From an uncultured Fibrobacteraceae bacterium (GTDB lineage Bacteria > Krumholzibacteriota > Krumholzibacteriia > LZORAL124-64-63): a stretch of 64,000 bases of DNA. The position numbers and the translations under genes were made by a program. The stretch is from contig CAZTWK010000004.1 in NCBI GenBank assembly GCA_964617805.1, forward strand, positions 15,860 to 79,859, given 5' to 3'. Below the pieces are notes generated by a model. The model was not told the DNA's origin and ran no database searches. It saw only the letters and a program-made list of their open reading frames with translations. Shown in pieces: positions 544 to 16,585 of this stretch. Position 1 is the stretch's first letter, and the number at the start of each line of letters is the position of its first letter.

Positions 544-1328
544 CAAGATACGCCTCCCAGCTCGCGCAGCAGGGCGGCGGGATCGTCGGCCTGCAGCAGG
601 GCGCCGCCGATCAGGCAGGCGTCGGCGCCGCAGGCGGCCATCGCCTCCACTTCGGCGCGGGTGCGGATGCCGCTCTCGGCCACCGCCAGGGCGCGGCGGC
701 GCAGCAGGGGCAGCAGGCGGCGCGGCGCGTCGAGATCCACGTCGAGGCTCTCCAGGTCGCGACTGTTGACGCCGATGAGCGGAGCGCCCGCGGTGAGGGC
801 CTTCTGCACGTCGTGCTCGTCGTGGCACTCGACCAGGGCGGTCATGCCCGCGTCGCCGATGGCCGCCAGCAGGCCCGCGAGCTCGCCGGGGGCCAGGGTG
901 CGGGCGATGAGCAGCAGGGCGTCGGCGCCCGCGGCCCGCGCCAGGAGCACCTGCAGCGGATCGAACACGAAGTCCTTGACCAGCAACGGCAGCTCGCAGG
1001 CCGCGCGTGCGGCGCTGGCGTCGGCGAGACTGGTGCCGAAGTTGGGCTCGTCGGTGACAACCGAGAGGGCGGCCGCGCCGTTGGCCGCATAGACGCGGGC
1101 CGTGGCGGCGGGATCGACGCCCCGCGGAAATTCGACCACGCTCGGCGAGCGCCGCTTGAACTCGGCGATGACGGCCACGTCGCCGGGGGCGGCGCGCAGG
1201 GCCGCCGCGAAGTCGCGCACCGGGCGGGCCTCGGCCTCGGCCCGCAGCGCGCCGGCGTCGGCCGCCGCGGCCAGGAACGCGACTTCCTCGCGCTTGGCCG
1301 CCATCACCCGGCTCAGGAATCCGTTCAC
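543..1328 (-). CDS. trpC: indole-3-glycerol phosphate synthase
   Basis: 261-aa ORF with IGPS-like sequence throughout (e.g. IAEFKRRSPS, GVNSRDL). Stop overlaps the trpF start and the start overlaps the trpD stop. Confidence 0.9.
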   Translation of the reverse strand: MNGFLSRVMAAKREEVAFLAAAADAGALRAEAEARPVRDFAAALRAAPGDVAVIAEFKRRSPSVVEFPRGVDPAATARVYAANGAAALSVVTDEPNFGTSLADASAARAACELPLLVKDFVFDPLQVLLARAAGADALLLIARTLAPGELAGLLAAIGDAGMTALVECHDEHDVQKALTAGAPLIGVNSRDLESLDVDLDAPRRLLPLLRRRALAVAESGIRTRAEVEAMAACGADACLIGGALLQADDPAALLRELGGVS

Positions 1329-2350
1329 GATCCGTCCTCCGTCAAAGCCCGCGAGCGGGCCGCCAGGGTGTCAAGGGCCGCGCGCGCGCGGCCGTCGTCC
1401 ACGGCCGCGGCCGCCAGGGCCACACCCTCGGCAGGGTCGTCGGTGCGGCCGGCCAGCACGGCGCAGAAGCCGGCGTTGAGCAGCACGGCGTCGCGACAGG
1501 GGCCCGGGGCGCCGTCGAGCACGTCGCGGATGCAGTCGGCATTGGTCTGCGCGTCGCCGCCGGCCAGGTCGTCCAGCCCGCAGCACGGCAGTCCCACGAA
1601 CCCGGGCGTGAAGCTGTACTCCCGGACCGTGCCGTCGCGCAACTCGGCCACGTGGGTCGGTCCGGTGGCCGACACCTCGTCCACGCCGTCGTGACCGCAG
1701 ACCACGAAGGCCCGCTCGCTGCCCAGCCGCCCCAGCACACGCGCCAGCTTGCCGGCCAGGTCGACTCGGAAGACGCCCAGCAGCTGCCGCCGCACGCTCG
1801 CCGGGTTGGTCAGGGGGCCGAGCACGTTGAAGACCGTGCGCGCGGCCATCTCGCGCCGCACCGGCATGGCGTGGCGCATGGCGGGATGGTGGACCGGGGC
1901 GAACATGAAGCCGACCCCGATCTCGTCCACCAGCTCGGCCACCCGCTCCGGGGGCAGGTCCACGGCCACGCCCAGGGCCTCGAGCACGTCGGCGCTGCCG
2001 CACTGGGACGAGACCGCCCGGTTGCCGTGCTTGGCCACGGGGATGCCCATGCCCGCCGCCACCAGGGCGGTGGCGGTGGAGATGTTGAAGGTGCCGCGGG
2101 CGTCGCCGCCGGTGCCGCAGGTGTCGATGACCCCCTCGCGCGACACGGACACCGGCGCCGCGTGCTCGCGCATGGCCCGGGCGAAGCCGGCGATCTCGTC
2201 CACGGTCTCGCCCCTGACGCGCAGGGCGGCCAGGGCGGCGGCGATCCGGGCCGGGGCCATCTCCCCGTCCATGATGGACGACATGAACGCGCGGGCCTCG
2301 TCGCCCGTGAGGTCGTCGCCGTCGAGCAGGCGTTCCAGCAGGTCGCGCAT
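1325..2350 (-). CDS. trpD: anthranilate phosphoribosyltransferase
   Basis: Internal start MRDLLERLLDGDDLT within ORF 1325..2689. Contains GTGGD and KHGNRAVSS motifs of TrpD. ATG at 2348-2350 overlaps the trpG stop (ATGA). Confidence 0.9.
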   Translation of the reverse strand: MRDLLERLLDGDDLTGDEARAFMSSIMDGEMAPARIAAALAALRVRGETVDEIAGFARAMREHAAPVSVSREGVIDTCGTGGDARGTFNISTATALVAAGMGIPVAKHGNRAVSSQCGSADVLEALGVAVDLPPERVAELVDEIGVGFMFAPVHHPAMRHAMPVRREMAARTVFNVLGPLTNPASVRRQLLGVFRVDLAGKLARVLGRLGSERAFVVCGHDGVDEVSATGPTHVAELRDGTVREYSFTPGFVGLPCCGLDDLAGGDAQTNADCIRDVLDGAPGPCRDAVLLNAGFCAVLAGRTDDPAEGVALAAAAVDDGRARAALDTLAARSRALTEDGS

Positions 2351-2937
2351 CAGCGTCCTCCCCCGACCGCGGCGCAACTCCGCAGGAAGTTGCCCAGCAG
2401 GGTGGGGCCCTCGCCGGTCAGAATCGACTCGGGGTGGAACTGCACGCCCTCGATGGGGAACTCGCGGTGCCGCACGCCCATCACCTCGCCCGCCGAGGTG
2501 AAGGACGACACCTCCAGCTCCGGCGGCAGCGATTCCTCGGGCGCGATCAGCGAGTGGTAGCGGGTGGCCTCGAAGGGATTGCCCAGCCCGTTGTAGAGGG
2601 TGCGGCCGTCGTGGTAGATGCGCGAGGTCTTGCCGTGCATCACGCGCTCGGCCCGCTGCACCACGCCGCCGTAGGCCTCCACGATGCACTGGTGTCCCAG
2701 GCAGATGCCCAGGATGGGCGTCGTGCCGCCCAGGCGGGAGATGAGCTCCAGTGAGATCCCCGCGTCGCTCGGGCGGCCCGGCCCCGGTGAGATGATCAGC
2801 GAGGCGGGCTTCAGCGCCACGGCCTCGTCCACGCCCAGGGCGTCGTTGCGCACCACGTGCACCTCGGCGCCGAGTGTGCCGAGGGCCTGCACCACGTTGT
2901 AGGTGAAGGAATCGTAGTTGTCGACGAGCAGATGCAT
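2350..2937 (-). CDS. trpG: anthranilate synthase component II (glutamine amidotransferase)
   Basis: 195-aa C-terminal segment of ORF 2350..4566, starting MHLLVDNYDSFTYNVV. GICLGHQ catalytic Cys and HPES triad motifs. ATG overlaps the trpE stop (ATGA at 2935-2939). Confidence 0.9.
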   Translation of the reverse strand: MHLLVDNYDSFTYNVVQALGTLGAEVHVVRNDALGVDEAVALKPASLIISPGPGRPSDAGISLELISRLGGTTPILGICLGHQCIVEAYGGVVQRAERVMHGKTSRIYHDGRTLYNGLGNPFEATRYHSLIAPEESLPPELEVSSFTSAGEVMGVRHREFPIEGVQFHPESILTGEGPTLLGNFLRSCAAVGGGR

Positions 2938-4418
2938 CAGAACCCCTCCTCGGCGATGGCCACGGCCCGGCGCAGGGCGCCGATCTTGTCCAGGGTCTCC
3001 TGGTACTCGCGCGCCGGATCGCTGTCGGCCACGATCCCGGCGCCGGCCTGTACGTGGTAGACGCCGTCGCGCACGAAGAGCGTGCGGATGGCGATGCACA
3101 TGTCCATATCCCCGTTGGGACCGAAGTAGCCCGCCGCGCCCGCGTAGGGGCCGCGGCGGCGTCCCTCCAGCTCGCTGATCACCTGCATGGCGCGGATCTT
3201 GGGCGCCCCGCTGACCGTCCCCGCAGGGAAGGAGGCGCGCAGCACGTCGTACATGTCCAGGTCGGGCACCAGATCGCCGGCCACCCGCGAGACGATGTGC
3301 ATCACGTGCGAGTAGCGTTCGATGGACATGAAGGCCTCGGTCTCGACCGTACCCGTCTTGCAGACCCGGCCCAGGTCGTTGCGCCCCAGGTCCACCAGCA
3401 TCACATGTTCGGCCCGCTCCTTCTCGTCCGCCAGCAGTTCGCGCTCCAGGGCCAGGTCGGCCGCGGTGTCCTCGCCGCGCGGCCGCGTGCCGGCGATGGG
3501 GCACAGGCTGACCCGCCCGCCCTCCAGCTTGACCAGCACCTCGGGCGAGGAGCCGACCACCTGCACGTCGCCGTGGTCCATGTAGAACATGTAGGGCGAG
3601 GGGTTGAGAATGCGCAGGGCCCGGTAGATCTGGAAGGGATGGGCCCGCGTCGGACCGCGCAGGCACTGGGAGACGACGATCTGGAAGCAGTCGCCCTCGA
3701 GGATGAACTCCTTGGCGTCGCGGACCATGCGCTCGTACTCGTCCTGCGACATGTTGAACTCGGAGGCCTCGGGGGCGCCGTCCCGGGGCGCGGGCGATGC
3801 GGGCAGCGGCGGCAGGGGCGCGCCCAGGGCGGCCAGCAGCTCGTCGATGCGGCCGGCGGCCGCGTCGTAGGCCGCGGCGCCGCCGCCGTTGGCCGGCAGG
3901 GTCACCAGTTCGATCTCGCACTTCACGTGGTCGAAGACGGCCAGGGTGGTCGGGATCACGAAGCGGTAGTCCGGCAGGTCGTCCAGCCAGCCCCCCTCGG
4001 GCAGGGGCACGCGCTCGAAGCGGCGCACCGTGTCGTAGGCGATGTTGCCCACCGCGCCGGCGAAGGGCGCGGGCAGGTCGTCGCCCTCGAGATCGGCGTA
4101 CTCGGCCAGGGCCGCGCGGACCGGGGCGAAGAGGTCGGCCGGGTCCACCGGCGTGGTCGTCGACGCGCCGTCGCGCGTGATGACGGCCTCGTCCCCGTCC
4201 AGGCGGATCTCGGTGCAGGGCCCCACGCCGATGAAGGAGTAGCGTCCCACCTGGATGCCCTGCTCCACGCTCTCCAGCAGGAAGGCCGCGCCGTGGGGCA
4301 TGAGCTTCAGGTAGGCCGACACGGGCGTGTCGAGGTCGGCGGGTATGCGCCGCCGCAGCGGGGCGCGCCGGCCCCGGGACGTGAGTTCGAGATACGCGTC
4401 GCGCGTCGGTGCGAGCAT
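2937..4418 (-). CDS. trpE: anthranilate synthase component I
   Basis: 493-aa ORF with chorismate-binding enzyme motifs (LLESVE, GAAGYFG, IRTL) and an anthranilate synthase-like C-terminus. Confidence 0.9.
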   Translation of the reverse strand: MLAPTRDAYLELTSRGRRAPLRRRIPADLDTPVSAYLKLMPHGAAFLLESVEQGIQVGRYSFIGVGPCTEIRLDGDEAVITRDGASTTTPVDPADLFAPVRAALAEYADLEGDDLPAPFAGAVGNIAYDTVRRFERVPLPEGGWLDDLPDYRFVIPTTLAVFDHVKCEIELVTLPANGGGAAAYDAAAGRIDELLAALGAPLPPLPASPAPRDGAPEASEFNMSQDEYERMVRDAKEFILEGDCFQIVVSQCLRGPTRAHPFQIYRALRILNPSPYMFYMDHGDVQVVGSSPEVLVKLEGGRVSLCPIAGTRPRGEDTAADLALERELLADEKERAEHVMLVDLGRNDLGRVCKTGTVETEAFMSIERYSHVMHIVSRVAGDLVPDLDMYDVLRASFPAGTVSGAPKIRAMQVISELEGRRRGPYAGAAGYFGPNGDMDMCIAIRTLFVRDGVYHVQAGAGIVADSDPAREYQETLDKIGALRRAVAIAEEGF

Positions 4419-4464
4419 GCCAATCCTCCAGCTCTACGGTTGCCGTCGAATGCCGTCGACGGCG

Positions 4465-4493
4465 CACAAAAAACCGCCATCGTCGGATGGCGG
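4465..4493 (-). terminator. GC hairpin (CCGCCATC-loop-GATGGCGG) followed by a 7-nt U-run on the minus strand: intrinsic terminator or trp attenuator
   Basis: Seen directly: the inverted repeat ccgccatcgtcggatggcgg at 4474-4493 is preceded on the plus strand by cacaaaaaa, i.e. a T-run after the hairpin on the minus strand. It lies between the DUF255 gene end (4712) and the trpE start (4418). Confidence 0.4.
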
Positions 4494-4711
4494 GTCTATC
4501 GGTATCGTCTCTCGTCTGATTAGGGGAGATTCGATCCGCACCTGCCATCCCGACGGCGCATACCATACCATCGCCACCAGCGGTGGTCGACGTGTGCGTC
4601 GCGGTGCAGGTCGTTGCGGGTCATGCGGACGCTCTCCTCCTCGTGGAGCGGACAACGTCGCCGCAAGAGGCGGCGACGTCCAGTAATGATACCGCATCCG
4701 GACGGCCCGGG

Positions 4712-6967
4712 TCAATCCCCCCGCGAGACATCCCCCCGCGAGACACGCCGTTCGCAATGGGGCCAGCGGTTCCGCAGCTGCCCCCGCAGGGTGGCGCCGT
4801 CGGTGGCCGGGGCCTCGCAGGCGCCGAAGCGGCAGACGTAGGCGGCCGGCGCGTCGTCGAGGGCCGTCTTGCCCCGGGCGCCCGGCAGCAGGGCGGCCAG
4901 GTCGTCGCCGGGTCCGCCCGCCGGCACCGCCGACAGCACCGCGTAGTGGGGATCCAGCTCCCAGAAGGCCGCGCGCAGGGCGGCGGTCCGCTCGGCGGCG
5001 GGATCGCCGGCGATCACCACCTCGTAGTGGGGCCCGTGGTACAGGGACGCGGCGTCGGCCCACCAGGCCATCTCCAGGCCCGCGCGGGCCAGCCAGTCGC
5101 CGTGGCGGGCGAGGATCTCCCCCACCCGTTCGCGCCCGGCGGGATCGCCGGCCAGGGCCGCCTCGCGCAGCAGGGCGTGCAGCATGGCCGAGGCCCCCGA
5201 GGGCTCCACGCTGTCGAAGAGGTCCACGCGGCGGCCGAGGGGCGCCTCGCCGCCGGCGGCGGTCAGGAAGAAGCCGCCCGCGGGGTCGGCGAAGAGCTCG
5301 CCGGCGGTGGCGAGCAGCTCCCGCGCCCGACGCAGGTCCCGCGGGTCGCCGCCGGCCTGGTAGAGGTCGAGCAGCCCGCCGGCCAGCAGGGCGTAGTCGT
5401 CGAGGATGCCCTCGCCGCTGCGCACGCCGTCGGTCGACGCGCGGCAGAGGCGGCCGTCGTCGTCGCGGTGCAGCTCCCAGAGGCGGTCGGCGGTGCGGCG
5501 CGCCGCCTCGAGATAACGGGCGTCGCCCAGCACGGCGTGGCCGCGCGCGAAGGCCGACAGGGCCAGGCCGTTCCAGGCGGTCACCAGCTTCCGGTCCAGG
5601 CCCGGCCACGTGCGCGCGGCGCGGTGGTCGTACAGGGCCTGGCGATGGCGATCGAAGAGACCGGCCATCTCGGCCTCGTCGCGGCCGAACTCGGCGGCCA
5701 CTTCCACGGGCGACACACGGCGTGTGAGGATGGACTTGCCCTCGAAGTTGCCCCCCTCGGTCACGCCCAGCAGGCTTGCCAGGACGGGGCCGTCCTCGGG
5801 GCCGGCCACCGCCGCGATCTCCGCCGGCGTCCACACGTAGAAGCTGCCCTCCTCGCCCCCGCTGTCCGCGTCGTAGCTGGCGTAGAAGCCGCCCGCGGGA
5901 TCGCTCAGGTCGCGCAGCATGAAGTCGAGCAGGTCCACGGCGATTTCCCGGTAACGCGCGTCGTCGAAGACCGTGGCGGCCTCCAGGTAGAGGCTGGCGA
6001 GCTGGGCGTCGTCGTAGAGCATGATCTCGAAGTGGGGCACCAACCAGGTGCGCTCGACGGTGTAGCGGTGGAAGCCGCCGCCCAGGTGGTCGTGGATACC
6101 GCCGCTGCCCATGGCCGACAGGGTGTGCCGGATGGCCGCCGCGAGTTCCGGGTCGCCGTTGCGGCGGTACTGGTGCAGCAGGAAGCGCCAGCGCAGCGGG
6201 GTGGGGAACTTCTGCTCCTGGCGGAAGCCGCCCCAGGTCTCGTCGTAGCTCTCGAGGGCCTCGGCGGCCAGGGCAGCCAGGGCCTCCGGTCCGGGCACCG
6301 CGTCCCCCTCGCGGACGATGTCGCGGGACAGGTGCTCGGCCACCCGCTTCGCCTGGCCCACGAGCTCGTCGCGTCGTTCGTCATAGGCGGTCGCGATGCT
6401 GCGGCAGAGGTGCAGGAACGGGTCGCGGGGAAAGTAGGTGCCCCCGAAGAAGGGCTCCAGGTCGGGCGTGAGGAAGGCGGTCAGGGGCCAGCCGCCGCGC
6501 CCGGTCATGGCCTGCACGGCCTCCATGTACACGGCGTCCAGGTCGGGGCGCTCCTCCCGGTCCACCTTGATGCAGACGAAGCGGGCGTTGACCAGGGCCG
6601 CCACCGCGTCGTCCTCGAAGACCTCGTGCTCCATCACGTGGCACCAGTGGCACGAGGCGTAGCCGATGGACAGGAAGATGGGCTTGTCCTCCTCGCGCGC
6701 CCGCGCCAGCGCCGCCTCCCCCCACGGATACCAGTCCACGGGGTTGTGGGCGTGCTGGCGGAGGTAGACGGAGCTCTCGTCGCGCAGGTGGTTGCCCTGG
6801 GCGCGGATCTGCGCGGGCGTGCGAAGCCCGTCGTCGCGGTCGGTCATGGCGGCTCCCGTGCACACGGCCAGGAGCGCCAGGAACGCGGCCGTGCGCAGAA
6901 GTGGCAAGACACGGCGTCGGCGCGAAGGCGCCGCCGCCTTATTGAGAACGGTTTTCATTCTGCACAT
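4712..6967 (-). CDS. thioredoxin-domain protein, DUF255/YyaL family (N-terminal thioredoxin-like fold plus six-hairpin glycosidase-like domain), secreted
   Basis: 751 aa. Signal peptide, then the hallmark DUF255 motif IGYASCHWCHVMEHEVFED. Long alpha-helical C-terminal domain. Confidence 0.8.
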   Translation of the reverse strand: MCRMKTVLNKAAAPSRRRRVLPLLRTAAFLALLAVCTGAAMTDRDDGLRTPAQIRAQGNHLRDESSVYLRQHAHNPVDWYPWGEAALARAREEDKPIFLSIGYASCHWCHVMEHEVFEDDAVAALVNARFVCIKVDREERPDLDAVYMEAVQAMTGRGGWPLTAFLTPDLEPFFGGTYFPRDPFLHLCRSIATAYDERRDELVGQAKRVAEHLSRDIVREGDAVPGPEALAALAAEALESYDETWGGFRQEQKFPTPLRWRFLLHQYRRNGDPELAAAIRHTLSAMGSGGIHDHLGGGFHRYTVERTWLVPHFEIMLYDDAQLASLYLEAATVFDDARYREIAVDLLDFMLRDLSDPAGGFYASYDADSGGEEGSFYVWTPAEIAAVAGPEDGPVLASLLGVTEGGNFEGKSILTRRVSPVEVAAEFGRDEAEMAGLFDRHRQALYDHRAARTWPGLDRKLVTAWNGLALSAFARGHAVLGDARYLEAARRTADRLWELHRDDDGRLCRASTDGVRSGEGILDDYALLAGGLLDLYQAGGDPRDLRRARELLATAGELFADPAGGFFLTAAGGEAPLGRRVDLFDSVEPSGASAMLHALLREAALAGDPAGRERVGEILARHGDWLARAGLEMAWWADAASLYHGPHYEVVIAGDPAAERTAALRAAFWELDPHYAVLSAVPAGGPGDDLAALLPGARGKTALDDAPAAYVCRFGACEAPATDGATLRGQLRNRWPHCERRVSRGDVSRGD

Positions 6968-7054
6968 GATAGTCGCAATGGAACCTTCTGCACCTCCCGG
7001 TTCAACGACGGCAAGCCCTTCCTCGTGGACGGGTCAGCTTTGATCCAACATCAA

Positions 7055-7198
7055 GAACAGATGAGTGGAGACGCTTCAGTCCGGGCGTCGGGAGGGGCCT
7101 GGAGCCACGGATGACGGATGGCCCCGCACGCCGAGCTGCCCGGCGACAGGACGTCGCCGGGCGGCGCCCCGGGCTGAAGCGTCTCCACTCATCTGTTC
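7055..7198. repeat. structured palindromic repeat, copy 3 (inverted orientation): 25-bp perfect outer stem, inner hairpin, diverged core
   Basis: gaacagatgagtggagacgcttcag (7055-7079) is the exact reverse complement of 7174-7198. Inner hairpin cccggcgac-aggac-gtcgccggg at 7139-7161. Core resembles copies at 20.5 kb and 52.1 kb (tggctccag motif). Confidence 0.6.
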
Positions 7199-7233
7199 GT
7201 GTTGATGATCACCAGGCATACGCGTCCACGCGC

Positions 7234-8208
7234 CTAGGACTTGCGCCCGACGATCACCTGGCTGTGCACGGCCACGTCGACGATCTCGAACTCGGCGAAA
7301 CCGGCGGCGCCCAGGGCCGCGACGGTCTCGGCGCGCGTGTAGGAGCGCCCCTGCTCGCTGCCCACCAGCATGTTCACGGCGAAGCGGGCGGCGAAGGGGG
7401 GCGCACAGCGGTCGTCGTCCAGGAAGAAGTCCTTCACCAGGATGCGGCCGCCGGGGACCAGAGCGGCGTGGGCCTTGCGGTAGATCAGGGCGATGGCCTC
7501 GTCGCCGAGGCTGTGGATGATGTTCGACACGTAGACCACGTCGAAGCCCTCGCCGAAGTCGTCCACGAAGTAGTCGCCCTCGACTGCGCGGACGCGGTCG
7601 CCCAGGTCCGTCGCGGCGATCACCTCGCGGGCGATGGCCACCGTCTCGGGCAGGTCGAAGACCACGCATTCGAGATCCGGATGGGCGGCCGCGAAGGTCA
7701 GGGCCGACGTGGCCGGACCGCCGCCGAGGTCCAGCAGGCGGCGGGCGTCGCCCAGGTCGACGCGCTCGACCACCTCGCGGCTCGACCCGCGCGAGATGTC
7801 GCGCATGCCGCAGATGTAGTCGCGGTGCTTGCGGGCCGAGGGGACGCGGGGCACCGGCCGTCCCGTGCGCAACGTCTCCTCGAGGCGCACCCAGCGCTTC
7901 ATGAGGTGGAAGTGGTGGGCGAAGATGTGGGACTGGGAGTTCTCGCCGTCGCGCAGCAGCAGCGCCGCGTTGTCCGGCGGCAGGCCGAAGCGCCCCGTCT
8001 CGTCCCGCGCCAGGACACCGGCCGCCGCCAGGGCGTGTAGCAGGATGTCCACCGCGCGTCCGTCCAGCTCCAAGCGGGCGGCCAGCTCCGCGGGGCGGTG
8101 GGCCTCGCGTCCGAGGGCCTCGATCAGGCCCGTCTGCAGGGCGGTCAGGAGGATGGCGGCGTTCTGATAGCCGTGCGCGAGCGTTTCCAGGCGTTCCTTG
8201 GCGTCCAT
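7234..8208 (-). CDS. class I SAM-dependent O-methyltransferase (with N-terminal dimerisation/winged-helix domain)
   Basis: 324 aa. LDLGGGPAT SAM-binding glycine motif. Overall plant/bacterial O-methyltransferase family architecture. Confidence 0.75.
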   Translation of the reverse strand: MDAKERLETLAHGYQNAAILLTALQTGLIEALGREAHRPAELAARLELDGRAVDILLHALAAAGVLARDETGRFGLPPDNAALLLRDGENSQSHIFAHHFHLMKRWVRLEETLRTGRPVPRVPSARKHRDYICGMRDISRGSSREVVERVDLGDARRLLDLGGGPATSALTFAAAHPDLECVVFDLPETVAIAREVIAATDLGDRVRAVEGDYFVDDFGEGFDVVYVSNIIHSLGDEAIALIYRKAHAALVPGGRILVKDFFLDDDRCAPPFAARFAVNMLVGSEQGRSYTRAETVAALGAAGFAEFEIVDVAVHSQVIVGRKS

Positions 8209-8317
8209 GGCGGGCTCCTTCGGTTGGTCGTCCCGGACCCGATTCTAAGGGCTGTCCCGTGCATGGCAAGACCGCTCTGGACGCCGACGCGCCGGCAGCG
8301 CCGAAAAAACGGGGAGG

Positions 8318-8350
8318 GCCCTGCGGCCCTCCCCTTCGCGTGTCCGTGCG
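8318..8350 (-). terminator. intrinsic terminator downstream of the rhodanese lipoprotein gene
   Basis: Hairpin ggggagggcc-ctgc-ggccctcccc. Read on the minus strand it is followed by TTTTTT. Confidence 0.5.
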
Positions 8351-8357
8351 GGCGAGG

Positions 8358-10223
8358 TTAGGGGATCGGCGTCGTTTCGAGCGGGAAGTCGTTCTGGGCG
8401 CCGGCGCCCCACTTGTGTCCCAACAGGTCGTCGTAGAACAGGTTGTTGGAACCGAACTTCAGCGACAACGCCTCGTAGCCCAGCATGTTCAGCGCCGCGG
8501 TGATCTGGCTGCTGTGCTGTCCGGTCCAGCAGTAGACCACGATGGGCATGTCCGTGGGCAGATGGCCCAGCATGGTCTCCATGCTCATGCTCGCGTAGGG
8601 CGTGAACTGGAAGGCGCCCGGGATGTGGCCCGGCACGCCGTCTTCGCCGACGCCCAGATAATCGTCCTCGTTGAAGTAGTTGACGACGAAGTAGTCCTCG
8701 AGGTTGTCCATGATGTCGGCGTACATCACGCCCTGGAAGCCCTCGCCGAGCATCCAGGCCACGCGGTCGGCCACCACGGTGCCGGCGTCGTAGCCGGCGA
8801 GCTCCGGATAGGCGTAGCCCACGAGGTCGCCGTTGTTGTTGTCGGTCTCGGCCACGGCCAGGGTGTTGTCCACGTTGTTGTTCCACGGACCGCTGAGGGT
8901 CGTGTTCCAGGCGGACATGCCGAACTTGAGGCTGCTCACGTCCTCGTAGCCCAGCAGCTCCAGGGAGATCTTGGCGTGGCCGGCGCTCTGGCCGGTGTAG
9001 CAGGCGACCACCATGGGCAGGTCGACCGGGATGGTCGTGCCCACGTCGGTCAGCAGCGTCGACAGCGACGAGTGGTAGGCGCCCGTGATGTGGCCGGCGT
9101 CGTAGTCGGTCTGGCTGCGGATGTCGATGACCGTGTAGTCCTCGAGGTTGTCGTAGAGGGCCTGCGCGCCCAGCACGCCGGGGCAGTCGCCGTTGTCGTT
9201 GACGTAGTCGACGACGGCGGCTTCCATGGCCGCGAACACCGGCGTCGGCACGCTGCCGATCTCCAGCTCGAAGTCGTAGGAGGCGCTCCACTTGTGGCCG
9301 GTCAGCAGACTGTGGAACAGGTTGTTGGAACCGAACTTGAGCGAGTAGGCCTCGTAGCCCAGCAGATTCAGGTAGGCCGTGATCTGCGAGGAGTGCTGAC
9401 CGGTCCAGCAGTAGACGATGATCGGCGTGTCCGTGGGCAGGTTGTCCAGCATCTGGTCGTCGCCGAGGCTGGCGTAGGGCGTGAACTGGAAGGCGCCGGG
9501 GATGTGGCCCGGCACGCCGTCTTCGCCGTTGCCGAGGTAGTCGTTCTCTCCGAAGTAGTTGAGGATGAAGTAGTCGTCGAGGTTGTCCATGATGTCGGCG
9601 TAGCTCTTGCCCTTGAAGCCCTCGTTGAGCATCCAGGCCACGCGCTCGGCCACCACCGTGCCCGCGTCGTAGCCGCTGAGGGCGGGGAAGTCGTGGGTGC
9701 TCAGGTCGCCGTTGTTGTTGTCGGTCTCGGGCGCGGCGAGGTTGTCGCCGCAGTTGGTGGTCCACTTGTCCAGCGAGGGGCTCCAGGAGGACATGCCGAA
9801 CTTCAGGCTGTTGACGTCGTCGTAGCCCATCAGCTCCATGGCGATCTTGGCGTGGCCGGCGCTCTGGCCGGTGTAGCAGGCCACCACGTAGGGCTTGTCC
9901 GCGGGGATGGCCTTGGCCGCCAAGTCGGCCAGCAGCGTGCCGAGCGACGAGTGGTACGCGCCGGGGATGTGGCCGGCGAGGTAGTCCGCTTCCGAGCGGA
10001 TGTCGATGACCGTGTAGTCCTCGAGGTTGTCGTGGAGGTTCTGGGCGTCGAGCACGCCGGGGCACTGGGCGTTGTCGTTGACGTAGGCCTTGCCAGCCGC
10101 CACCATGGCCTCGAACGCCGTTTCCTCGGGGGTCGGCGACGTGCCGTCGTCGGAGCAACCCCAGACGGCCACCATGGCGATCAGCAGCAATGCCGTCCAC
10201 ATCAAGCGCTTCTGCATTCTCAT
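8358..10223 (-). CDS. lipoprotein with four rhodanese-like sulfurtransferase domains (internal tandem duplication of a two-domain unit)
   Basis: Lipobox VWGC after the signal peptide. Two ~290-aa halves are clearly homologous. Each half carries candidate active-site loops CYTGQSAGHAK and CWTGQHSSQ. Good SD (GAGGAG) before the start. Confidence 0.8.
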   Translation of the reverse strand: MRMQKRLMWTALLLIAMVAVWGCSDDGTSPTPEETAFEAMVAAGKAYVNDNAQCPGVLDAQNLHDNLEDYTVIDIRSEADYLAGHIPGAYHSSLGTLLADLAAKAIPADKPYVVACYTGQSAGHAKIAMELMGYDDVNSLKFGMSSWSPSLDKWTTNCGDNLAAPETDNNNGDLSTHDFPALSGYDAGTVVAERVAWMLNEGFKGKSYADIMDNLDDYFILNYFGENDYLGNGEDGVPGHIPGAFQFTPYASLGDDQMLDNLPTDTPIIVYCWTGQHSSQITAYLNLLGYEAYSLKFGSNNLFHSLLTGHKWSASYDFELEIGSVPTPVFAAMEAAVVDYVNDNGDCPGVLGAQALYDNLEDYTVIDIRSQTDYDAGHITGAYHSSLSTLLTDVGTTIPVDLPMVVACYTGQSAGHAKISLELLGYEDVSSLKFGMSAWNTTLSGPWNNNVDNTLAVAETDNNNGDLVGYAYPELAGYDAGTVVADRVAWMLGEGFQGVMYADIMDNLEDYFVVNYFNEDDYLGVGEDGVPGHIPGAFQFTPYASMSMETMLGHLPTDMPIVVYCWTGQHSSQITAALNMLGYEALSLKFGSNNLFYDDLLGHKWGAGAQNDFPLETTPIP

Positions 10224-10323
10224 CACTCCTCAGTCGAGCCCGCGGGCTCGGGGTTGTGGAGCGGCGCGGGCCGCCCCGTGCTAACGGAGACCGGGCGCGG
10301 CAAACGCCCGGCCGCTATACGCG

Positions 10324-11820
10324 TCATTCTTCCTCTTCCGGAAAGGATTCCGGGATCACGATGCCGACGTTCGCGTCGTGGTCCGGCAACGGCGTGACGC
10401 CGTCCTCGTCGTAGAGATCCGACACGCGCAACAGGTAGCCCTCGGGCGCGTCGGGCGATAGATGGCAGGCGTCGGAGCAGGACTGGCCCGCCTCGACCGT
10501 GGTCTGCGGCGTGTTGCGCAGGATGTTGTGGGGCGACGCGTAGGTCCAGGTCGGCTCGTCGAGATAGCCGGGCAGATCCAGGCCCCAATCCGCGAAGGTG
10601 CCGGGATCGGTGGGCACGTGCCTCACCACGGAGAAGTCGTACTCATCCCGGTACGGGCTCGGATTCCGCGCGATCTTGAACTGGATGCGGCTGGGATCGA
10701 TCTCGAACTTCGCTCCCTCGTCTGCCACCAGGTTGTGGCAGTTCGTGCAGTTCTTGTAGGGTTGCGAATGGCAGACCTGGCACTGGAGGTTCACGTCGGG
10801 CACGCCCACGTGCGCCTCGTGGAACTCGTTGTCCCACGCGCCGTCGAGGCCCTCGCCGTGGCAGTCCTCGCAACGGGGCATGGTGGCCACCTCGTAGCGG
10901 TGCTCGTAGTGGTCGCCGGCGTGCTGGCCATCGCCGTGCATCTCCTCCGCGCTGTGGCAGTTCTCGCACTTCATGCCGGCGCTGCGGTGCAGGTCGGGCA
11001 CGTTGCCCTCGAGTTCGCCCTTGAAATCGACCCCGACACGGCTGCCGTGACAGGCGGTGCACTGCTCGTTCATGTCCGGCGAGGCCCGGAAGCGGTGCGA
11101 GTAGTAGGAGCCGATCTTGGGGAAGCCGCCGCCCACGCTGTTGGGCCGGCCGATGTGGCACTGGCCGCAGGTGGTGTGGCAGCCGCCGCACTTGTTGTCG
11201 AAGTAGGTTTCGTAGCCCGACCCCTCGAAGACGCAGCGCCCGCGCGTCTCGATGGCGCGCTTCTCGCCCCAGAGATTGGTGTGCAGGCTGTTGGCGGTGG
11301 CCGCGGCCTCCGCCTCGTGGCACCCGGCGCAGGCGGAGTCGGCGAAGTCCTCCTCGTGGCAAGCGACGCAGCCGGACGGCCCGACGGCGCTGGGATCGGC
11401 GATCATGCCGTCATGGGCTTCGGCCATGTCGTCGAACGTGTTGTCGGGCTGACCCCCGTGGCAGTGCTGGCACGATAGCGGGTGCGGCACCAGGTCGCCC
11501 TCGTAGTCGGGGCCGTGCGCGCTGGTCAGGAAGCGGGTGGCGTTGGTGCCCCTGATGATGACCTTCTCCCAAGCCTCCAGCTCGGGTACGTCGCCGCCTC
11601 AGCCGTCCTGCTTGTGGGGCACGACCGCCTTGCTGCCCCCCGCGTCGGCCAGGGCCGCCTGGAGCATCTCCTCGCTCTCGTGGCAGCCGAGACAGGTCAG
11701 ATCGGTCAGGTGATCGCCCTCGCCCGGATCGAGCAGTTCGTTGGAGGTGTCGTGTTCGCACCCCCACAGGCAGGCCAGCGCCAGCAACGACATGGCGCTT
11801 ACGGTGATGACTCTGTTCAT
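10324..11820 (-). CDS. multiheme c-type cytochrome lipoprotein (about 12 CXXCH) interrupted by one in-frame TGA at 11599-11601: candidate selenoprotein or readthrough gene
   Basis: ORF 11599..11820 encodes lipoprotein signal MNRVITVSAMSLLALACLWGC plus CLGCH. ORF 10324..11490 encodes 11 further heme motifs (CQHCH, CVACH, CAGCH, CGGCH, CGQCH, CTACH, CENCH, CEDCH, CQVCH, CTNCH, CSDACH) with no signal peptide of its own. The two are in the same frame, separated only by a TGA and 36 sense codons. The downstream ORF start in the track is a GTG. Confidence 0.6.
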
Positions 11821-12464
11821 CGGGCTCTCCCGCGTTGGGCCGCGTCCCGGCTCGTGGAACCGTCGTGGAGTCCGCGAGCGAAGATCGGCACGTTGTTGCA
11901 GATGACCGTTTCGGCGTCGAGCCTGGTTCCGTCCAGGTCGCCCCAGACGTCGGCGCTGAGGGCGCAATCCATGACCATCCCCACGAAGCAGCGTCCGGTG
12001 ATGTAGGGGTCCACCTCGCGGATCTCTCCGGCGGAGATCCGGCGGGACAGTTCGTCGCGCAGGAACTCGATATAGGGCAGCCGGACTTCCTTGAAGAGCA
12101 CCGCGGAGCCCGGGCCGCTGTCCAGACGGTTGAAGTGCATCAGGCGAATCAGTTCGGGATCGCGGTCGGCCAGGGCGAGGATGTGCCTCGCCAGCATGAT
12201 GAGCATCTCCTCGATCCCTTCCCGGTCGGCCCGTCCGCTCAGGTAGGCGCGGATGTCGTGCTGGCGGGCCTTGTCGCGGATCACCTCTTCGTAGAGGTGG
12301 GCCTTGCCGTCGTAGTGGCGATAGATGGCGGCTTCGCTGATGCCGCAGGTGCCGGCGATGAGCCGGATGGAGGTCCCGGCGTAGCCCTTGTCCGCGAACA
12401 GGCGCGAGGCGTTCGCGAGGATCTGACGGCTGCGGCTGCCCGGACTGCCCTTGGCGGTCATCAT
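11817..12464 (-). CDS. TetR/AcrR family transcriptional regulator
   Basis: 215 aa. N-terminal HTH (RQILANASRLFADKGYAGTSIRLIAGTCGISEAAIYRHY). Stop overlaps the downstream cytochrome start (ATGA). Confidence 0.85.
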   Translation of the reverse strand: MMTAKGSPGSRSRQILANASRLFADKGYAGTSIRLIAGTCGISEAAIYRHYDGKAHLYEEVIRDKARQHDIRAYLSGRADREGIEEMLIMLARHILALADRDPELIRLMHFNRLDSGPGSAVLFKEVRLPYIEFLRDELSRRISAGEIREVDPYITGRCFVGMVMDCALSADVWGDLDGTRLDAETVICNNVPIFARGLHDGSTSRDAAQRGRAR

Positions 12465-12473
12465 CGCATCCCC

Positions 12474-14405
12474 CTAGAACCGGCCCGACAGCGCGAGGGT
12501 GTAGAGGTCCAGGATGTAGTCGTCCCACCTGTTCTCGTCGAACTCGTGGCGCCGGAAGGCCGCATGGGCCGTCTTGCCCGGCGAGAACTCCCAGCTCGCG
12601 CGCACGAGCAGGCGATTGTAGTCGGACATGACGTCGTCGGACACGCCGCCGGTCCCCGCGGCGTCCTCGTGCCGCACGCCCTCGTAGTGGCCCTCCACGC
12701 GCAGCGTCTCGCCGAGCTTGAGGGTCGCGCCGGGGGCGAAGCGCAGGGTGGTGCCGTCGTAGACCAGCGGCGCCATGCCCGCTTCCGCGTCCGGGCCGTC
12801 GGTGAGCCGGTACTCCTCGCGGCCCAGCGACACCGTCCCCAGCAGGGTTAGCCGGTCGTTCGCCAACCAGCTCGCCGCCACGTAGCCGCGACGGGCCCGC
12901 CAGGTCGTCTCGGTGTTCTCGAGATCGAGCCGCCGGAAGGTCCGTTCGACGACCCGGTGCCCCAGATCGACGCGCAGGTCGCGCAGGGGCCGCGCCTGCA
13001 GGGCCACCCGGCCGCCGTACTGCTCGCGTTCGCGATCGCCCATCCAGAAGTGCCAGGGCTCGCCGGAGGTCGTATCCCAGGTGTCGAGCTGCTCCACTTC
13101 GGAGCCGCGCCATTCGGCGCGCGCCTTCAGGACGGTGCGGGCGCCGAGGCGTACCCGCCCGCGGAAACCGACCTCCTGGTCCCGCCTGTCCTGGGCGGTG
13201 GTCTGGCTATCGCCCTCCAGGCCGCTGCCGGGGACGCCGTCCAGGGCCCGGGTCTCGTCCAGATCGGAGCTGCGGTACTTGTAGTGGAGCCGGAGACGCG
13301 TCCGGTCCAGCGCCGTAGTCGTCAGCACGGCGCGGAGATCCCGGCTAGACCGGCTGCGATCGGCGGCCTGGAGAGTCGCGTCGCCGAAGTCGACCCGGCC
13401 CTCGCTGTTCAGGCTGCGCAGGCCGGCCGACAGGCGCAGGGTCGAGGCGCGACCCAGCTTCTTGATCAGGCCGAGCCGGCCGGTATCCGTGTTCGCGTCG
13501 CCCGGGGACGTGAGCCGATTTCCCTGGTAGGTCTCGAACTGGGCGCTCTCCAGGCGCGAGGTCGCGGCGGCGCCCAGGACGCGCAACCCGTCGCCCACGT
13601 CCAGGGACGCCTTGAGCCGGGCGCTCCAGAGCTCGCCGTCGGCCTCGTAGGCGTGGCGAGTGTCGAGGGTGCGGGTACCGTCCGCGCCGCGATGGCTCAG
13701 ACGCAGATCGCCCGCGAAACCGCCGCGGGCATAGGCGCCGCGCAACCAGAATTCCCGGGCGGTCGTGTCGAAGGCCCTGGACGCCGGCGGCGCTTCGCCG
13801 GCGACCAGCATGCCCCGGGCCAGGCTGCTCTTCTCGCCCGAGCGCCTGGTCTGCACGGCGCCCGCCGACACGTCGAGACCGTCCCGGACATGGTGGCGCA
13901 CGCTGATCCGGGCGCGGTTCCAGTCGAGGACCGGCGCCGGGTCGAGGGCGGGGGGCGGAGGGTCGAGCCGGAAGACGGGCGCCCGCATCTCGCTGGTATC
14001 GTCGTAGTGGTGGTGGAAGCTGCGGTACGAGGCCGCGATGGCGTACCGGCCGGGCGCGCCCCAGTCCAGGGCGACGGCGCCGCTCGCGCCGGCCCCGCTG
14101 CCGTAGTCGCCCGCGCCCCGCAGGGACAGCCGGCGCCCGTCGTCCCGCACCCGCCGCCAGCCGAAGAGGCCCGCGTGACGGTGCTCGTCCACCCGCCACG
14201 CGTCCTCCGCCGCCTTGGCGCCACTGCCGTAGGCGTCCATGAATTCACCGGCGAGGGCCCAGTGGTTGCCGGTGCCGACCAGGTCGCCCGCGGGCGCCCA
14301 GATCCGGCCGGCCTGGACGGGCAGATCGTCCGCCGCCGCGACGGCGCTCACGATCAGAAGCGCCGCGGCCAGGACCATGCTGTAGGTCGAGCTCGTCGTC
14401 TTCAT
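12474..14405 (-). CDS. outer-membrane beta-barrel of the MtrB/PioB (porin-cytochrome) type
   Basis: 643 aa. Signal peptide. Many alternating amphipathic beta-strand segments rich in R, D, G and aromatics. C-terminal residue F. Begins 13 nt after the decaheme cytochrome gene. Confidence 0.7.
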   Translation of the reverse strand: MKTTSSTYSMVLAAALLIVSAVAAADDLPVQAGRIWAPAGDLVGTGNHWALAGEFMDAYGSGAKAAEDAWRVDEHRHAGLFGWRRVRDDGRRLSLRGAGDYGSGAGASGAVALDWGAPGRYAIAASYRSFHHHYDDTSEMRAPVFRLDPPPPALDPAPVLDWNRARISVRHHVRDGLDVSAGAVQTRRSGEKSSLARGMLVAGEAPPASRAFDTTAREFWLRGAYARGGFAGDLRLSHRGADGTRTLDTRHAYEADGELWSARLKASLDVGDGLRVLGAAATSRLESAQFETYQGNRLTSPGDANTDTGRLGLIKKLGRASTLRLSAGLRSLNSEGRVDFGDATLQAADRSRSSRDLRAVLTTTALDRTRLRLHYKYRSSDLDETRALDGVPGSGLEGDSQTTAQDRRDQEVGFRGRVRLGARTVLKARAEWRGSEVEQLDTWDTTSGEPWHFWMGDREREQYGGRVALQARPLRDLRVDLGHRVVERTFRRLDLENTETTWRARRGYVAASWLANDRLTLLGTVSLGREEYRLTDGPDAEAGMAPLVYDGTTLRFAPGATLKLGETLRVEGHYEGVRHEDAAGTGGVSDDVMSDYNRLLVRASWEFSPGKTAHAAFRRHEFDENRWDDYILDLYTLALSGRF

Positions 14406-14418
14406 GACCTTGCGCCTC

Positions 14419-15336
14419 CTAGTCGCGGAACGTCGGCGAGACGTTCGAACCGTGGATTTCCGTATGGCAGTCGTAGCAACGGGCCTCGCCGCCCAGGTAA
14501 CCGCCGTGATTGGCGTCGCCCAGCTCCCAGTTGTCGTCGGGACCGAAGGACGTCTCGAAATGGCACTGCAGACAGAGCGTGCCGCCGTCGGTGACCAGCA
14601 GCTTGTCGTTCATCGAGCCGTGGGGCCGATGGCAGGCGACGCAATCCTCGCCGGCGACGCCTTCGTGCTCGAAGACGAAGGGGCCGGACATCTCCGTATG
14701 GCAGGCGAGACAGACGTCGCTCATCCCGTTCCAGCCCACGTCGGGGAAGTCCGCGTGGGGATCGTGGCAATCGCCGCAGGTCACGGTGCCTTCCAGCACC
14801 CTGTGCCGGAAGGGCAGCCGGAAGTCGGAGGCCTGCGACCCGTGGCATTGGAGGCAGAACTCCGACGGATTGCGATAGTGCGACGGCGGCGTGACGTCCC
14901 CCGTGAAGTGCATCTGATCGAGGTGGCAGTCGGCGCAGCCCACGCCGCTCCCGGCGTGGGGGCCCGCGTGCCAGTCGACGCGCCGGTTCGCGTGGCACTG
15001 GGTGCACATGGCCGCGCGGTCGGCCTCGGACATCCGGGAGATGGCCTCCGCCCCGAGGATGAACCCGTCCCCCTCCTGCTCCACGTGCAGGCTGCCGGGG
15101 CCGTGGCAGGCCTCGCAGGCGTCGATGCCGGTGCCGGGCACCGTGGCCGCGCGCGACACCGCGTGGGGTGAATGCGCCGCGGGATCCTCGACGTCGTCGT
15201 GGCAGTCGAGGCAGGCGTCAGCGCCCACGTAGGCGGCCTCGGCCGGCACCCCGAGCCCTTCGCTGTACGTGCCAGTCGACGCCTGCGCCGCGATCAGGAC
15301 GAGTATCCCCGCCATCGGCAGGATCAGACGCTGCAT
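14419..15336 (-). CDS. periplasmic decaheme c-type cytochrome, MtrA/PioA-like
   Basis: Start MQRLILPMAGILVLIAAQA with strong SD GGAGGT. Ten CXXCH motifs: CLDCH, CEACH, CTQCH, CADCH, CLQCH, CGDCH, CLACH, CVACH, CLQCH, CYDCH. Confidence 0.85.
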   Translation of the reverse strand: MQRLILPMAGILVLIAAQASTGTYSEGLGVPAEAAYVGADACLDCHDDVEDPAAHSPHAVSRAATVPGTGIDACEACHGPGSLHVEQEGDGFILGAEAISRMSEADRAAMCTQCHANRRVDWHAGPHAGSGVGCADCHLDQMHFTGDVTPPSHYRNPSEFCLQCHGSQASDFRLPFRHRVLEGTVTCGDCHDPHADFPDVGWNGMSDVCLACHTEMSGPFVFEHEGVAGEDCVACHRPHGSMNDKLLVTDGGTLCLQCHFETSFGPDDNWELGDANHGGYLGGEARCYDCHTEIHGSNVSPTFRD

Positions 15337-15408
15337 GGGTGACCTCCACGCGAGAAGTGAACGTTCACTGATCGATTCAACGATATTTCCCGCAGGTGAC
15401 CTGGGCAA

Positions 15409-15480: not shown

Positions 15481-15628
15481 CAGGCCGATGAAGCATGTAC
15501 TGGACAGCCCGACATCGCGCCTCGGCCAGGCGGTTTCGACTTCAGGAAAGCCGTTCAGGGCCGATATCATACTCGTCCAGGCGCCCCGCGTGAATCGCCG
15601 TGCGCCGGTGCCCCATTCCGGAGGATAG

Positions 15629-16585
15629 ATGGCCGACACGCCCTTGATCAGCGTCGTCATTCCCTGCTACAAGGCCGCCGACACCCTGCCGGGGACGCTG
15701 GAGTCCGTCCTGTCCCAGGACCACGCCCAGGTGGAAGTCGTCGCGGTGGACGACGGCTCGCCGGACGACACCTCCGGCGTGCTGCTCGGCTACGGCGACC
15801 GCATCACCGCCGTGCGCATCGCCAACAGCGGCGGGCCCGCCCGCCCGCGTAACGTGGGCATCGACCAGGCGCAGGGAGAGTTCGTGGCCCTGCTGGATGC
15901 CGACGACATGATGCTGCCCGGCAAGCTCTCGGCCCAGGCCGCCGTCTTCGCGGCCCTGCCCGAGGTGGACCTGGTCTGCACCGACTTCCGGCGCGTCGAC
16001 GCCGACGGCTCCGTGCTCGCGAACAGCTACCTCGCCGACTACCGCGGCTTCCGGCGCCTGCTTCGCCCCACCGCGCTGCCGGGCGTGTCCCTGCTGTCCG
16101 CAAACGATCTCCACCACGAGTTGCTGCGGGGGAATTTCGTGGGCACCTCGAGCGTGATGGCCCGCCGCGATCGCCTGCGGGCCGTCGGCGGCTTCGACGA
16201 GACCCTGCGCAACGGCGACGACATCGACATGTGGCTCAAGCTGGCCCGCGACGGTGCCGTCTTCGCCTTCCTGGACCGCCCCTATCACGACTACCGCGTC
16301 AACGACGCGGGCATCTCCGCCGGCGGCTGGCGCCGGTTCCCTTCGGTGATCCGGGTGCGCGAGCGCCAGCTCGACCACATCACCGACCCCGAGATGCGCC
16401 GCTACCTCGACGACCGCCTGCTCTACATGCGGCTGGGCTACGCCTGGGGCCTGCGCGGCGACGGCCGCTACGACGAGGCCCTGCCCGCCTACCGCGAAGC
16501 CATCGCCCAGCGCTGGACCTGGCGCGGTTTCAAGGGCCTGGTGATGACGCGAGTGCTTTCGCTGCTGTCGTTTGGACGTCGCTAG
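15629..16585 (+). CDS. family 2 glycosyltransferase
   Basis: 318 aa. N-terminus ISVVIPCYKAADTL, DDGSPDDT and LDADD motifs of GT-A/GT2 enzymes. Confidence 0.85.
   Translation: MADTPLISVVIPCYKAADTLPGTLESVLSQDHAQVEVVAVDDGSPDDTSGVLLGYGDRITAVRIANSGGPARPRNVGIDQAQGEFVALLDADDMMLPGKLSAQAAVFAALPEVDLVCTDFRRVDADGSVLANSYLADYRGFRRLLRPTALPGVSLLSANDLHHELLRGNFVGTSSVMARRDRLRAVGGFDETLRNGDDIDMWLKLARDGAVFAFLDRPYHDYRVNDAGISAGGWRRFPSVIRVRERQLDHITDPEMRRYLDDRLLYMRLGYAWGLRGDGRYDEALPAYREAIAQRWTWRGFKGLVMTRVLSLLSFGRR

Follow-up and report, generated by a model that had tools for sequence, protein, structure and literature searches.

The window examined here (the whole stretch of DNA analysed, 64,000 nucleotides (nt) of contig CAZTWK010000004.1 with ~69% GC) carries, on its minus strand, a gene for a multihaem c-type cytochrome whose reading frame is interrupted by a single TGA codon. 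The gene is predicted to encode a selenocysteine (Sec)-containing lipoprotein, referred to below as the Sec-cytochrome. An ATG at 11820-11818, the internal TGA at 11601-11599 and a terminal TGA at 10326-10324 share one frame, which comprises 498 sense codons and the internal TGA. Between the internal TGA and the first later start, a GTG at 11490, lie 36 sense codons. The original prediction had placed the open reading frames (ORFs) 11599..11820 and 10324..11490 in one frame, split by the TGA and these 36 codons, and re-reading of the coordinates gave the same layout. The elements of the gene, including a hairpin that resembles a selenocysteine insertion sequence (SECIS), are as follows:

10324..11820, minus strand: Sec-cytochrome gene, encoding a 498-residue pre-lipoprotein with putative Sec at codon 74 (frame reading and homologue comparison)
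11758..11820, minus strand: signal peptide and lipobox, residues M1-C21, LWGC (sequence motif)
11680..11694, minus strand: haem motif 1, CLGCH, residues 43-47, the sole haem motif upstream of the UGA (motif)
11599..11601, minus strand: in-frame UGA, the proposed Sec codon (U74), motif D-G-U-G-G (conservation, Cys homologues)
11568..11586, minus strand: SECIS-like hairpin CCCGAGCU-GGA-GGCUUGGG, 12 nt past the UGA and within the conserved P-E-L-E-A-W codons (folding, covariation)

The N-terminus of the predicted product, MNRVITVSAMSLLALACLWGC, has the sequence motif of a signal peptide with the lipobox LWGC. Canonical CxxCH haem motifs are found at residues 43, 117, 151, 164, 211, 218, 254, 285, 317, 347 and 358. 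Twelve haem motifs had been predicted; eleven are indeed CxxCH, but the twelfth is a CxxxCH (CSDACH, residues 448-453), so the protein is a twelve-haem cytochrome only if this CxxxCH binds haem. In the homologue alignment, all the invariant cysteines lie inside haem motifs. The proposed U74 is located ~26 residues past the first haem motif, in the glycine-rich sequence D-G-U-G-G.

A protein search with the cytochrome retrieved 829 homologues, the best 120 of which were considered in detail. Most of these 120 cover only 72-85% of the query, and many of those aligned start at 'M/VPELEAW', five codons past the position of the TGA, which is the usual output of gene callers where a stop codon sits. 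At the DNA level, using one genome per GTDB species, at least 550 relatives were confirmed and the best 80 loci were kept. Codon 74 is TGA in 78 of these 80 species-level loci and in the window, and in none of them is it TAA or TAG. By their record labels, the loci belong mostly to Krumholzibacteriota, with the remainder assigned to Eisenbacteria, Gemmatimonadota, Latescibacterota, Myxococcota-like 'Deltaproteobacteria', Calditrichia, Ignavibacteria, and others. Across the 79 genes concerned (78 loci and the window), the codon is embedded in the context K-[GD]-[DE]-G-U-G-G-x-V-P-x-L-E-A-W-E-K-V, where 78 of the 79 genes have G(-1) and every gene has G(+1), G(+2), V(+4), and W(+10). All 79 genes encode a signal/lipobox-type N-terminus in frame upstream of the TGA, together with exactly one CxxCH, whose His lies 22-33 residues before the Sec position. 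In a gap-free alignment of 74 distinct 60-nt segments around the TGA, its three positions (T13, G14, and A15) did not vary, and on either side of the codon the encoded protein is conserved.

The distance from the TGA to the next start codon varies between 4 and 80 codons, so that no internal start is conserved; in 55 of the 79 genes it is at least 10 codons, which places the start beyond the invariant W84. Both W84 and the invariant H102-G103-P104 precede the first start codon that could be used after the TGA. Attachment of c-type haem requires export, and the downstream part has no signal peptide. The proposal that the two parts make one secreted protein is thus borne out by the conserved flanks, the lack of a conserved internal start and the lack of a signal peptide on the downstream part. 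The same conservation of TGA, frame, and flanks, with no conserved internal start and no downstream signal peptide, leads us to exclude that the TGA is an assembly error, that the gene has decayed to a pseudogene, or that two genes are present. Two of the objections had been raised in advance with the original prediction: that the TGA is an assembly error, which is countered by its presence in 78 independent assemblies, and that homologues have a separate downstream start with its own signal peptide, which was not seen across the 79 genes. TGA is otherwise the commonest ordinary stop in the window, ending 25 of 45 ORFs (selected by third-position GC). The tryptophan genes end in TGA, as had been pointed out. 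The internal TGA is the sole TGA in the 64 kb with coding-type composition on both flanks. A genome-wide reassignment of TGA is therefore excluded, in agreement with the earlier argument for local recoding.

A stem of 6 bp starting 12 nt past the UGA had been suggested. The stem and its spacing were recovered, but its length is 8 bp rather than 6: in the centroid fold of the region, CCCGAGCU pairs with GGCUUGGG around a GGA loop, starting 12 nt past the UGA. Across the Sec-type genes, the hairpin starts 11-12 nt downstream of the UGA. Most rows of the 74-segment alignment follow one register (register A), in which columns 28-35 pair with columns 39-46 to give 8 bp and a GGA loop. Paired cells make up 91.7% in this register; sliding the 3′ partner by 1-3 columns lowers the share to 24-53%, and none of 500 shuffles attained the observed pairing score. 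The informative pair is 32-42, which is C-G in 33 rows, A-U in 31, and unpaired in 10, the last apparently all belonging to register B or to variants. The Ala codon has its wobble base at column 42, which follows the x codon of P-x-L, which is GAG or GCG/ACG/CCG. Register B, used by 12 rows (Eisenbacteria and several other lineages), places the hairpin 3 nt further upstream than register A, as GUN CCU CCG UUG GAG GNN with 6 bp and a GUU or GGU loop (98.6% paired). Its closing pair, 27-41, is G-C five times, C-G four times, and A-U three times; one side of this pair is a Val wobble base, and the other side alters the encoded residue (Ala/Val/Gly).

Bacterial SECIS elements have been described as stem-loops just 3′ of the UGA with a small apical loop that starts with G and then G/U, 16-37 nt from the UGA (PMC13188914, a 2026 review). 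The hairpin loops found here start with G and then G/U (GGA, GUU, GGU) at ~20 nt from the UGA, in keeping with this rule. Five TGA-less homologues have lost the specific hairpin and retain P-x-L-E-A-W, which ties the hairpin to the UGA rather than to the protein sequence. Folding energies in these five range from -3.4 to -11.8 kcal/mol, compared with a mean of -12.7 kcal/mol in the Sec-type genes (standard deviation 1.75, n = 79).

The TGA-less close homologues have TGG in L020 (where Ala and Val replace the flanking glycines) and in L082, CAA in L039, CCT in L081, and a deletion in L083. The glycines on either side never vary in the Sec forms, but other residues take their place in the W, Q, and P forms. 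Only U74, G75, S228, V229, S352, K356, and S377 are lost together with Sec, and all the haem motifs are kept. More distant relatives were collected through an exhaustive hidden Markov model search, with a profile of full-length homologues, of 1.84 billion representatives, which yielded 446 clusters (50% identity) at E <= 1e-3; 30 more distant full-length members, with 26-39% identity, were aligned. Cys occupies the Sec column in nine of these 30 (P0133, P0136, P0161, P0162, P0180, P0190, P0192, P0209, and P0212), in a G-C-G-G or similar setting, for example GEG-C-GG-TVPEMEAWEK in P0133 and GGG-C-GG in P0136. An alignment of this kind had been proposed as a check on the prediction, and the column shows a Sec/Cys pair of the classical type. 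Trp is the commonest of the non-Cys residues at this column in the 30 distant homologues, a frequency explained by the change from TGA to TGG being a one-step mutational escape. A DNA pattern based on the close motif with Cys was matched three times in metagenomes, each time by chance in a non-coding frame; the Cys forms proved to be more divergent, and it was the hidden Markov model search that recovered them.

A link to selenium metabolism was found in L043, a 'Deltaproteobacteria'-labelled metagenome-assembled genome. A selD gene at 3896-4940 (minus strand; TIGR00476, 366 bits) is divergent from the cytochrome gene and immediately upstream of it, and carries its own in-frame UGA at the canonical CAG-U-ASK position. 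In L044, a second genome with the same label, a selD motif match near 2024 occupies the same position relative to the cytochrome. Sec had been proposed as the most likely reading of the UGA, and this is supported by the exclusive conservation of TGA, a covarying hairpin lost along with it, Cys at the same column, and the adjacent Sec-containing selD of L043. The split cytochrome is very probably one exported lipoprotein, in which the UGA would be read as Sec by SelB and tRNA-Sec via the hairpin at 11586-11568. The Sec-cytochrome appears to represent a widespread selenoprotein family that has so far gone unannotated.

The Sec-cytochrome gene is the fourth of five in an operon ordered as decahaem cytochrome, putative barrel, TetR-family regulator, Sec-cytochrome, and rhodanese. 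The other features of the operon are as follows:

15566..15594, minus strand: promoter-like site TTCACG-17-TATGAT (consensus match only, 9/12)
14419..15408, minus strand: operon gene 1, a periplasmic decahaem c-type cytochrome of the DmsE/MtrA family (TIGR03508, 203.6 bits against a cut-off of 192.2)
12474..14405, minus strand: 643-residue signal-peptide protein ending in ...LSGRF, a putative outer-membrane beta-barrel (position in the operon)
11817..12464, minus strand: TetR-family regulator, whose stop overlaps the cytochrome start (ATGA, 11820-11817; TetR_N, 54 bits)
8358..10226, minus strand: four-domain rhodanese lipoprotein (PF00581, 166 bits over four stretches; GlpE-type NCBIfam models)
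8311..8334, minus strand: intrinsic-terminator-like hairpin of 10 bp (9 GC) with a T run, 24 nt past the rhodanese stop, at the operon end (sequence)

The decahaem cytochrome also matched the GSU2203-family model at 203 bits, below its cut-off of 325, and Paired_CXXCH_1 of Pfam. The 643-residue protein, which would form the outer-membrane barrel of a conduit, matched no Pfam or NCBIfam model and has no MtrB/PioB signature. Its AlphaFold2 model, based on four homologues, consists mostly of beta strands, but at a mean predicted local distance difference test (pLDDT) score of 29.7 it is not usable. Each rhodanese domain has one Cys loop, CYTGQSAG in two domains and CWTGQHSS in the other two. Following the lipobox Cys, the rhodanese lipoprotein reads C-S-D-D-G-T-S (window 10130-10160, minus strand), and the Sec-cytochrome reads C-E-H-D-T-S-N (window 11740-11757), which is C-[ED]-N-D-T-S-N in many close homologues. 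These acidic or polar residues could be a sorting or surface-export signal, to judge from the sequence; we take them to resemble the surface-export signals of Bacteroidota lipoproteins.

The partners recur to different degrees across the 80 loci: rhodanese in 75, TetR in 51, the barrel in 40, and the upstream decahaem cytochrome in 35. Wherever 700 nt or more of downstream sequence is available, TGA-type loci have a rhodanese gene directly downstream (74 of 74), compared with none of four TGA-less loci, three of which were added deliberately, share an alkaline-phosphatase neighbour and may represent a single evolutionary event; the counts are uncorrected for phylogeny. In these three (L081, L082, and L083, with Pro, Trp, and a deletion, respectively), an alkaline-phosphatase gene on the opposite strand takes the place of the rhodanese gene downstream, and they probably form one clade that has lost Sec and rhodanese together. 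Among the Cys-type homologues, P0136 has a rhodanese gene 33 nt downstream, and P0162 is followed by a truncated gene to which a BLASTP comparison with the window rhodanese gave no assignment. The distant homologue P0189 (715 residues) carries two rhodanese domains as a C-terminal, Rosetta-stone fusion. In L043, an ArsR-type helix-turn-helix-rhodanese fusion (5124-5864, plus strand) is encoded upstream of the cytochrome in place of TetR, which suggests control by reactive sulfur or selenium species.

The operon is flanked by genes at 4712-8208 (minus strand) and 15629-16585 (plus strand), which encode a 751-residue DUF255/thioredoxin-like protein (PF03190, 235 bits), an O-methyltransferase-like product, and a family-2 glycosyltransferase. 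These flanking genes recur in seven to eight of the closest loci, such as L001, L004, L010, L024, and L028. Elsewhere in the window, a tryptophan block at 543-4418 (minus strand) consists of the TGA-ended genes trpE (TIGR00564, 537 bits), an anthranilate phosphoribosyltransferase-type ORF, and indole-3-glycerol-phosphate synthase. A 1556-residue protein encoded at 20862-25532 (minus strand) ends in a type IX secretion system sorting domain (TIGR04183), which suggests a host resembling the Fibrobacteres-Chlorobi-Bacteroidetes group, with type IX secretion.

The closest parallel to the Sec-cytochrome is MccSep/ExtKL (GSU2937-2936) of Geobacter sulfurreducens, a periplasmic pentahaem selenoprotein whose polysulfide reductase activity has been demonstrated by experiment (Mihara et al., Sci Adv 2026, PMC13510729). 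Western blotting showed MccSep to be one polypeptide that covers both annotated parts. Its Sec (U325) is located in a D-G-U-P loop of a C-terminal immunoglobulin-like domain, beside a His/Cys-ligated haem, and a strictly conserved cysteine, C239, lies outside its haem motifs (PMC13510729). The MccSep cluster also encodes the rhodanese-like ExtH (PMC13510729), as well as a porin-like protein and further multihaem cytochromes (PMC5877670). Like MccSep/ExtKL, the Sec-cytochrome is a multihaem c-type cytochrome called as two ORFs around an in-frame UGA, with Sec on a small loop starting D-G-U, a SECIS-like hairpin within ~30 nt of the UGA, and both Sec-type and Cys-type homologues. The rhodanese-like gene of that cluster also has a counterpart here, in the rhodanese found downstream in 74 of 74 TGA-type loci, which is an analogy of context and no proof of homology.

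The two proteins nevertheless differ in many respects. MccSep has five haem motifs, whereas the Sec-cytochrome has 12 (11 CxxCH and one CxxxCH); Sec is C-terminal in the former (U325) and near the N-terminus in the latter (residue 74); and the former has a soluble periplasmic signal peptide in place of the lipoprotein signal found here. MccSep also has the haem-ligating C239, while no invariant non-motif Cys was found in the Sec-cytochrome. Their hosts differ as well, being Desulfobacterota and Nitrospirota for MccSep, and Krumholzibacteriota, Eisenbacteria, Gemmatimonadota, and others by record label in our dataset. The Sec-cytochrome gave no match to the MccSep/ExtKL model NF040886 at E <= 0.01, and its only NCBIfam match was to ExtM, at 19 bits where the cut-off is 800. 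By analogy, it plausibly works like MccSep but belongs to a different family, and being a lipoprotein it may lie at the cell surface.

The octahaem tetrathionate reductase (OTR) family (TIGR04315) has GenBank-annotated Sec members according to a 2026 review (PMC13188914). The Sec-cytochrome did not match TIGR04315, and it differs from OTR (PDB 1sp3) in haem number and in being a lipoprotein. No PDB chain gave a significant sequence or profile match. A Foldseek search of the PDB with an AlphaFold2 model of the W-variant homologue P0002, in which residues 1-90 are below a pLDDT of 50, also gave no match.

At the level of the operon, the arrangement recalls the MtrCAB/Pcc conduits of Shewanella and Geobacter in having a DmsE/MtrA-family decahaem cytochrome, a large signal-peptide protein in the position of the barrel, and a multihaem lipoprotein cytochrome. 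It differs in that the Sec-cytochrome does not belong to the MtrC/OmcA family (PF22113, 17.8 bits against a cut-off of 30), a TetR gene lies inside the operon, and the barrel candidate is without an MtrB/PioB signature. To our knowledge, the known porin-cytochrome conduits have neither Sec nor a rhodanese partner. A rhodanese partner is seen in the Sud-Psr system of Wolinella succinogenes, where the rhodanese-like sulfur transferase Sud feeds the polysulfide reductase Psr. Both cases involve a rhodanese-type carrier that is encoded with, and presumed to supply sulfane sulfur to, an extracytoplasmic respiratory reductase. However, Psr is a molybdopterin enzyme rather than a haem- or Sec-based one, and the rhodanese found here is a four-domain lipoprotein.

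The rhodanese pairing and the conduit-type operon point to respiration on sulfur or selenium compounds as a candidate function. As a tentative mechanism, for which we see an even chance at best, electrons from the periplasm would reach the haems of the lipoprotein cytochrome by way of the decahaem-barrel module. The selenolate of Sec74 would attack a chalcogen-chalcogen bond in polysulfide or sulfane sulfur, or possibly in tetrathionate or selenium species, and the resulting Se-S adduct would be reduced by the haems. The rhodanese lipoprotein would bind sulfane sulfur and pass it to the Sec-cytochrome. Taken as a whole, the explanation of the locus as a Sec-cytochrome in an operon with this kind of function is one that we consider probable.

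A number of observations weigh against these interpretations. ARAGORN detected no tRNA-Sec in the 64-kb window or in loci L001-L060, the only loci scanned for tRNAs. Searches with signature-motif regular expressions alone found no selA, selB, or selD in the window, and no selA or selB in the scanned loci, where selD matches were confined to L043 and L044. An Rfam scan of the window gave no match, and the 91-nt region folded alone was no more stable than shuffled sequences (z = -0.77), which makes the hairpin signal a comparative one only. The TGA-less close homologues carry W, Q, P, or a deletion at the Sec position and never Cys, so that Sec is not indispensable to every function of the cytochrome. 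The rhodanese association also has its exceptions, as the Cys-type P0133 has no rhodanese neighbour and the rhodanese-fused P0189 has Tyr at the Sec column. There is no invariant non-motif Cys to fill the role of C239 in MccSep, and since the first 90 residues of the P0002 model are of such low confidence, the Sec loop could not be placed relative to the haems. The location of the protein (surface or periplasmic face), its substrate, and the direction of the reaction are purely inferred.

The alternative that survives best is programmed read-through without selenium. The hairpin would slow termination and a near-cognate tRNA, likeliest tRNA-Trp, would read the UGA, so that a 73-residue monohaem lipoprotein is made together with a minor full-length form. 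A hairpin 3′ of a stop codon can in principle promote read-through, no Sec machinery was seen in the window, and Trp is found at the column in P0002/L020, P0025/L082, P0143, P0170, P0172, P0251, and P0253. Yet TGG would be a simple solution were Trp acceptable, and 78 of 80 species hold TGA; the one-step escape from TGA accounts for how often Trp occurs in the TGA-less forms. Read-through also sits poorly with the Cys that nine homologues have in the same G-x-G-G loop, with flanking glycines that are invariant in Sec forms and replaced in W, Q, and P forms, and with a hairpin whose loop and spacing match the SelB-type SECIS rule. The Sec-containing selD that adjoins the gene in L043, with a further selD motif in L044, likewise speaks for selenium. 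We regard read-through as improbable.

Much less credence can be given to the TGA as a true terminator, which would either separate a small monohaem lipoprotein from a second cytochrome or mark a decaying pseudogene. Public gene calls agree with such a split, and most database homologues begin at or after 'VPELEAW'. However, the downstream part would then be made without a signal peptide and from a start that ranges over 4-80 codons, leaving invariant residues untranslated, and full-length homologues with a sense codon at this position exist. Decay is incompatible with a frame and codon kept across lineages labelled as several phyla. A sequencing or assembly error at 11599-11601, or a genome-wide reassignment of TGA (code 4 or 25), is an a-priori possibility only, in which a Gly reading would suit D-G-x-G-G, and its likelihood is negligible given the same TGA in 78 independent assemblies, the 25 of 45 ordinary ORFs that end in TGA in a window of ~69% GC, and the fact that no other TGA in the window has coding signal on both sides.

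With UGA read as Sec as the preferred explanation, the Sec-cytochrome can be placed among known selenoproteins. The only cytochrome-related entries in the prokaryotic selenoprotein table of the 2026 review are ExtKL, a GSU2204-type barrel, and the OTR family (PMC13188914), and term searches of that review gave nothing with the motif or host taxa of the Sec-cytochrome. NCBIfam release 20 has no model for it. Given these absences and the lack of a match to NF040886, the Sec-cytochrome is, on sequence grounds and within the literature searched, a putative new family among Sec-containing multihaem cytochromes. Nearly all of the best 120 of the 829 homologues are called as N-truncated products, and those that are named are annotated as 'hypothetical protein' or 'thiosulfate/3-mercaptopyruvate sulfurtransferase'. 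The latter label (from the Joint Genome Institute), borne by several N-truncated fragments, is spurious, and is presumably carried over from the adjacent rhodanese gene.

A more far-reaching version of the proposed function, which we consider unlikely, would make the Sec-cytochrome a surface selenoenzyme at the outer end of the conduit, with Sec ligating a c-type haem (a natural His/Sec haem) or lying beside one. Acting with a surface rhodanese, it would carry out the extracellular reduction of elemental sulfur or selenium in insoluble form. If true, such extracellular reduction would amount to sulfur respiration without polysulfide import, a step that was left as an open point in the study of MccSep (PMC13510729).

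The gene is present in hundreds of species-level genomes, with at least 550 relatives among GTDB representatives and 446 clusters at 50% identity, and next to MccSep it apparently forms a second and unrelated family of multihaem cytochromes that contain Sec. The combination of Sec, haem, and rhodanese apparently has at least two separate origins. By record label, the poorly known lineages to which selenium use would be extended include Krumholzibacteriota, Eisenbacteria, Gemmatimonadota, Latescibacterota, and others. The Sec codon and the rhodanese gene are strictly paired within a conduit-type operon, which provides a testable hypothesis for sulfur or selenium respiration by uncultured anaerobes.

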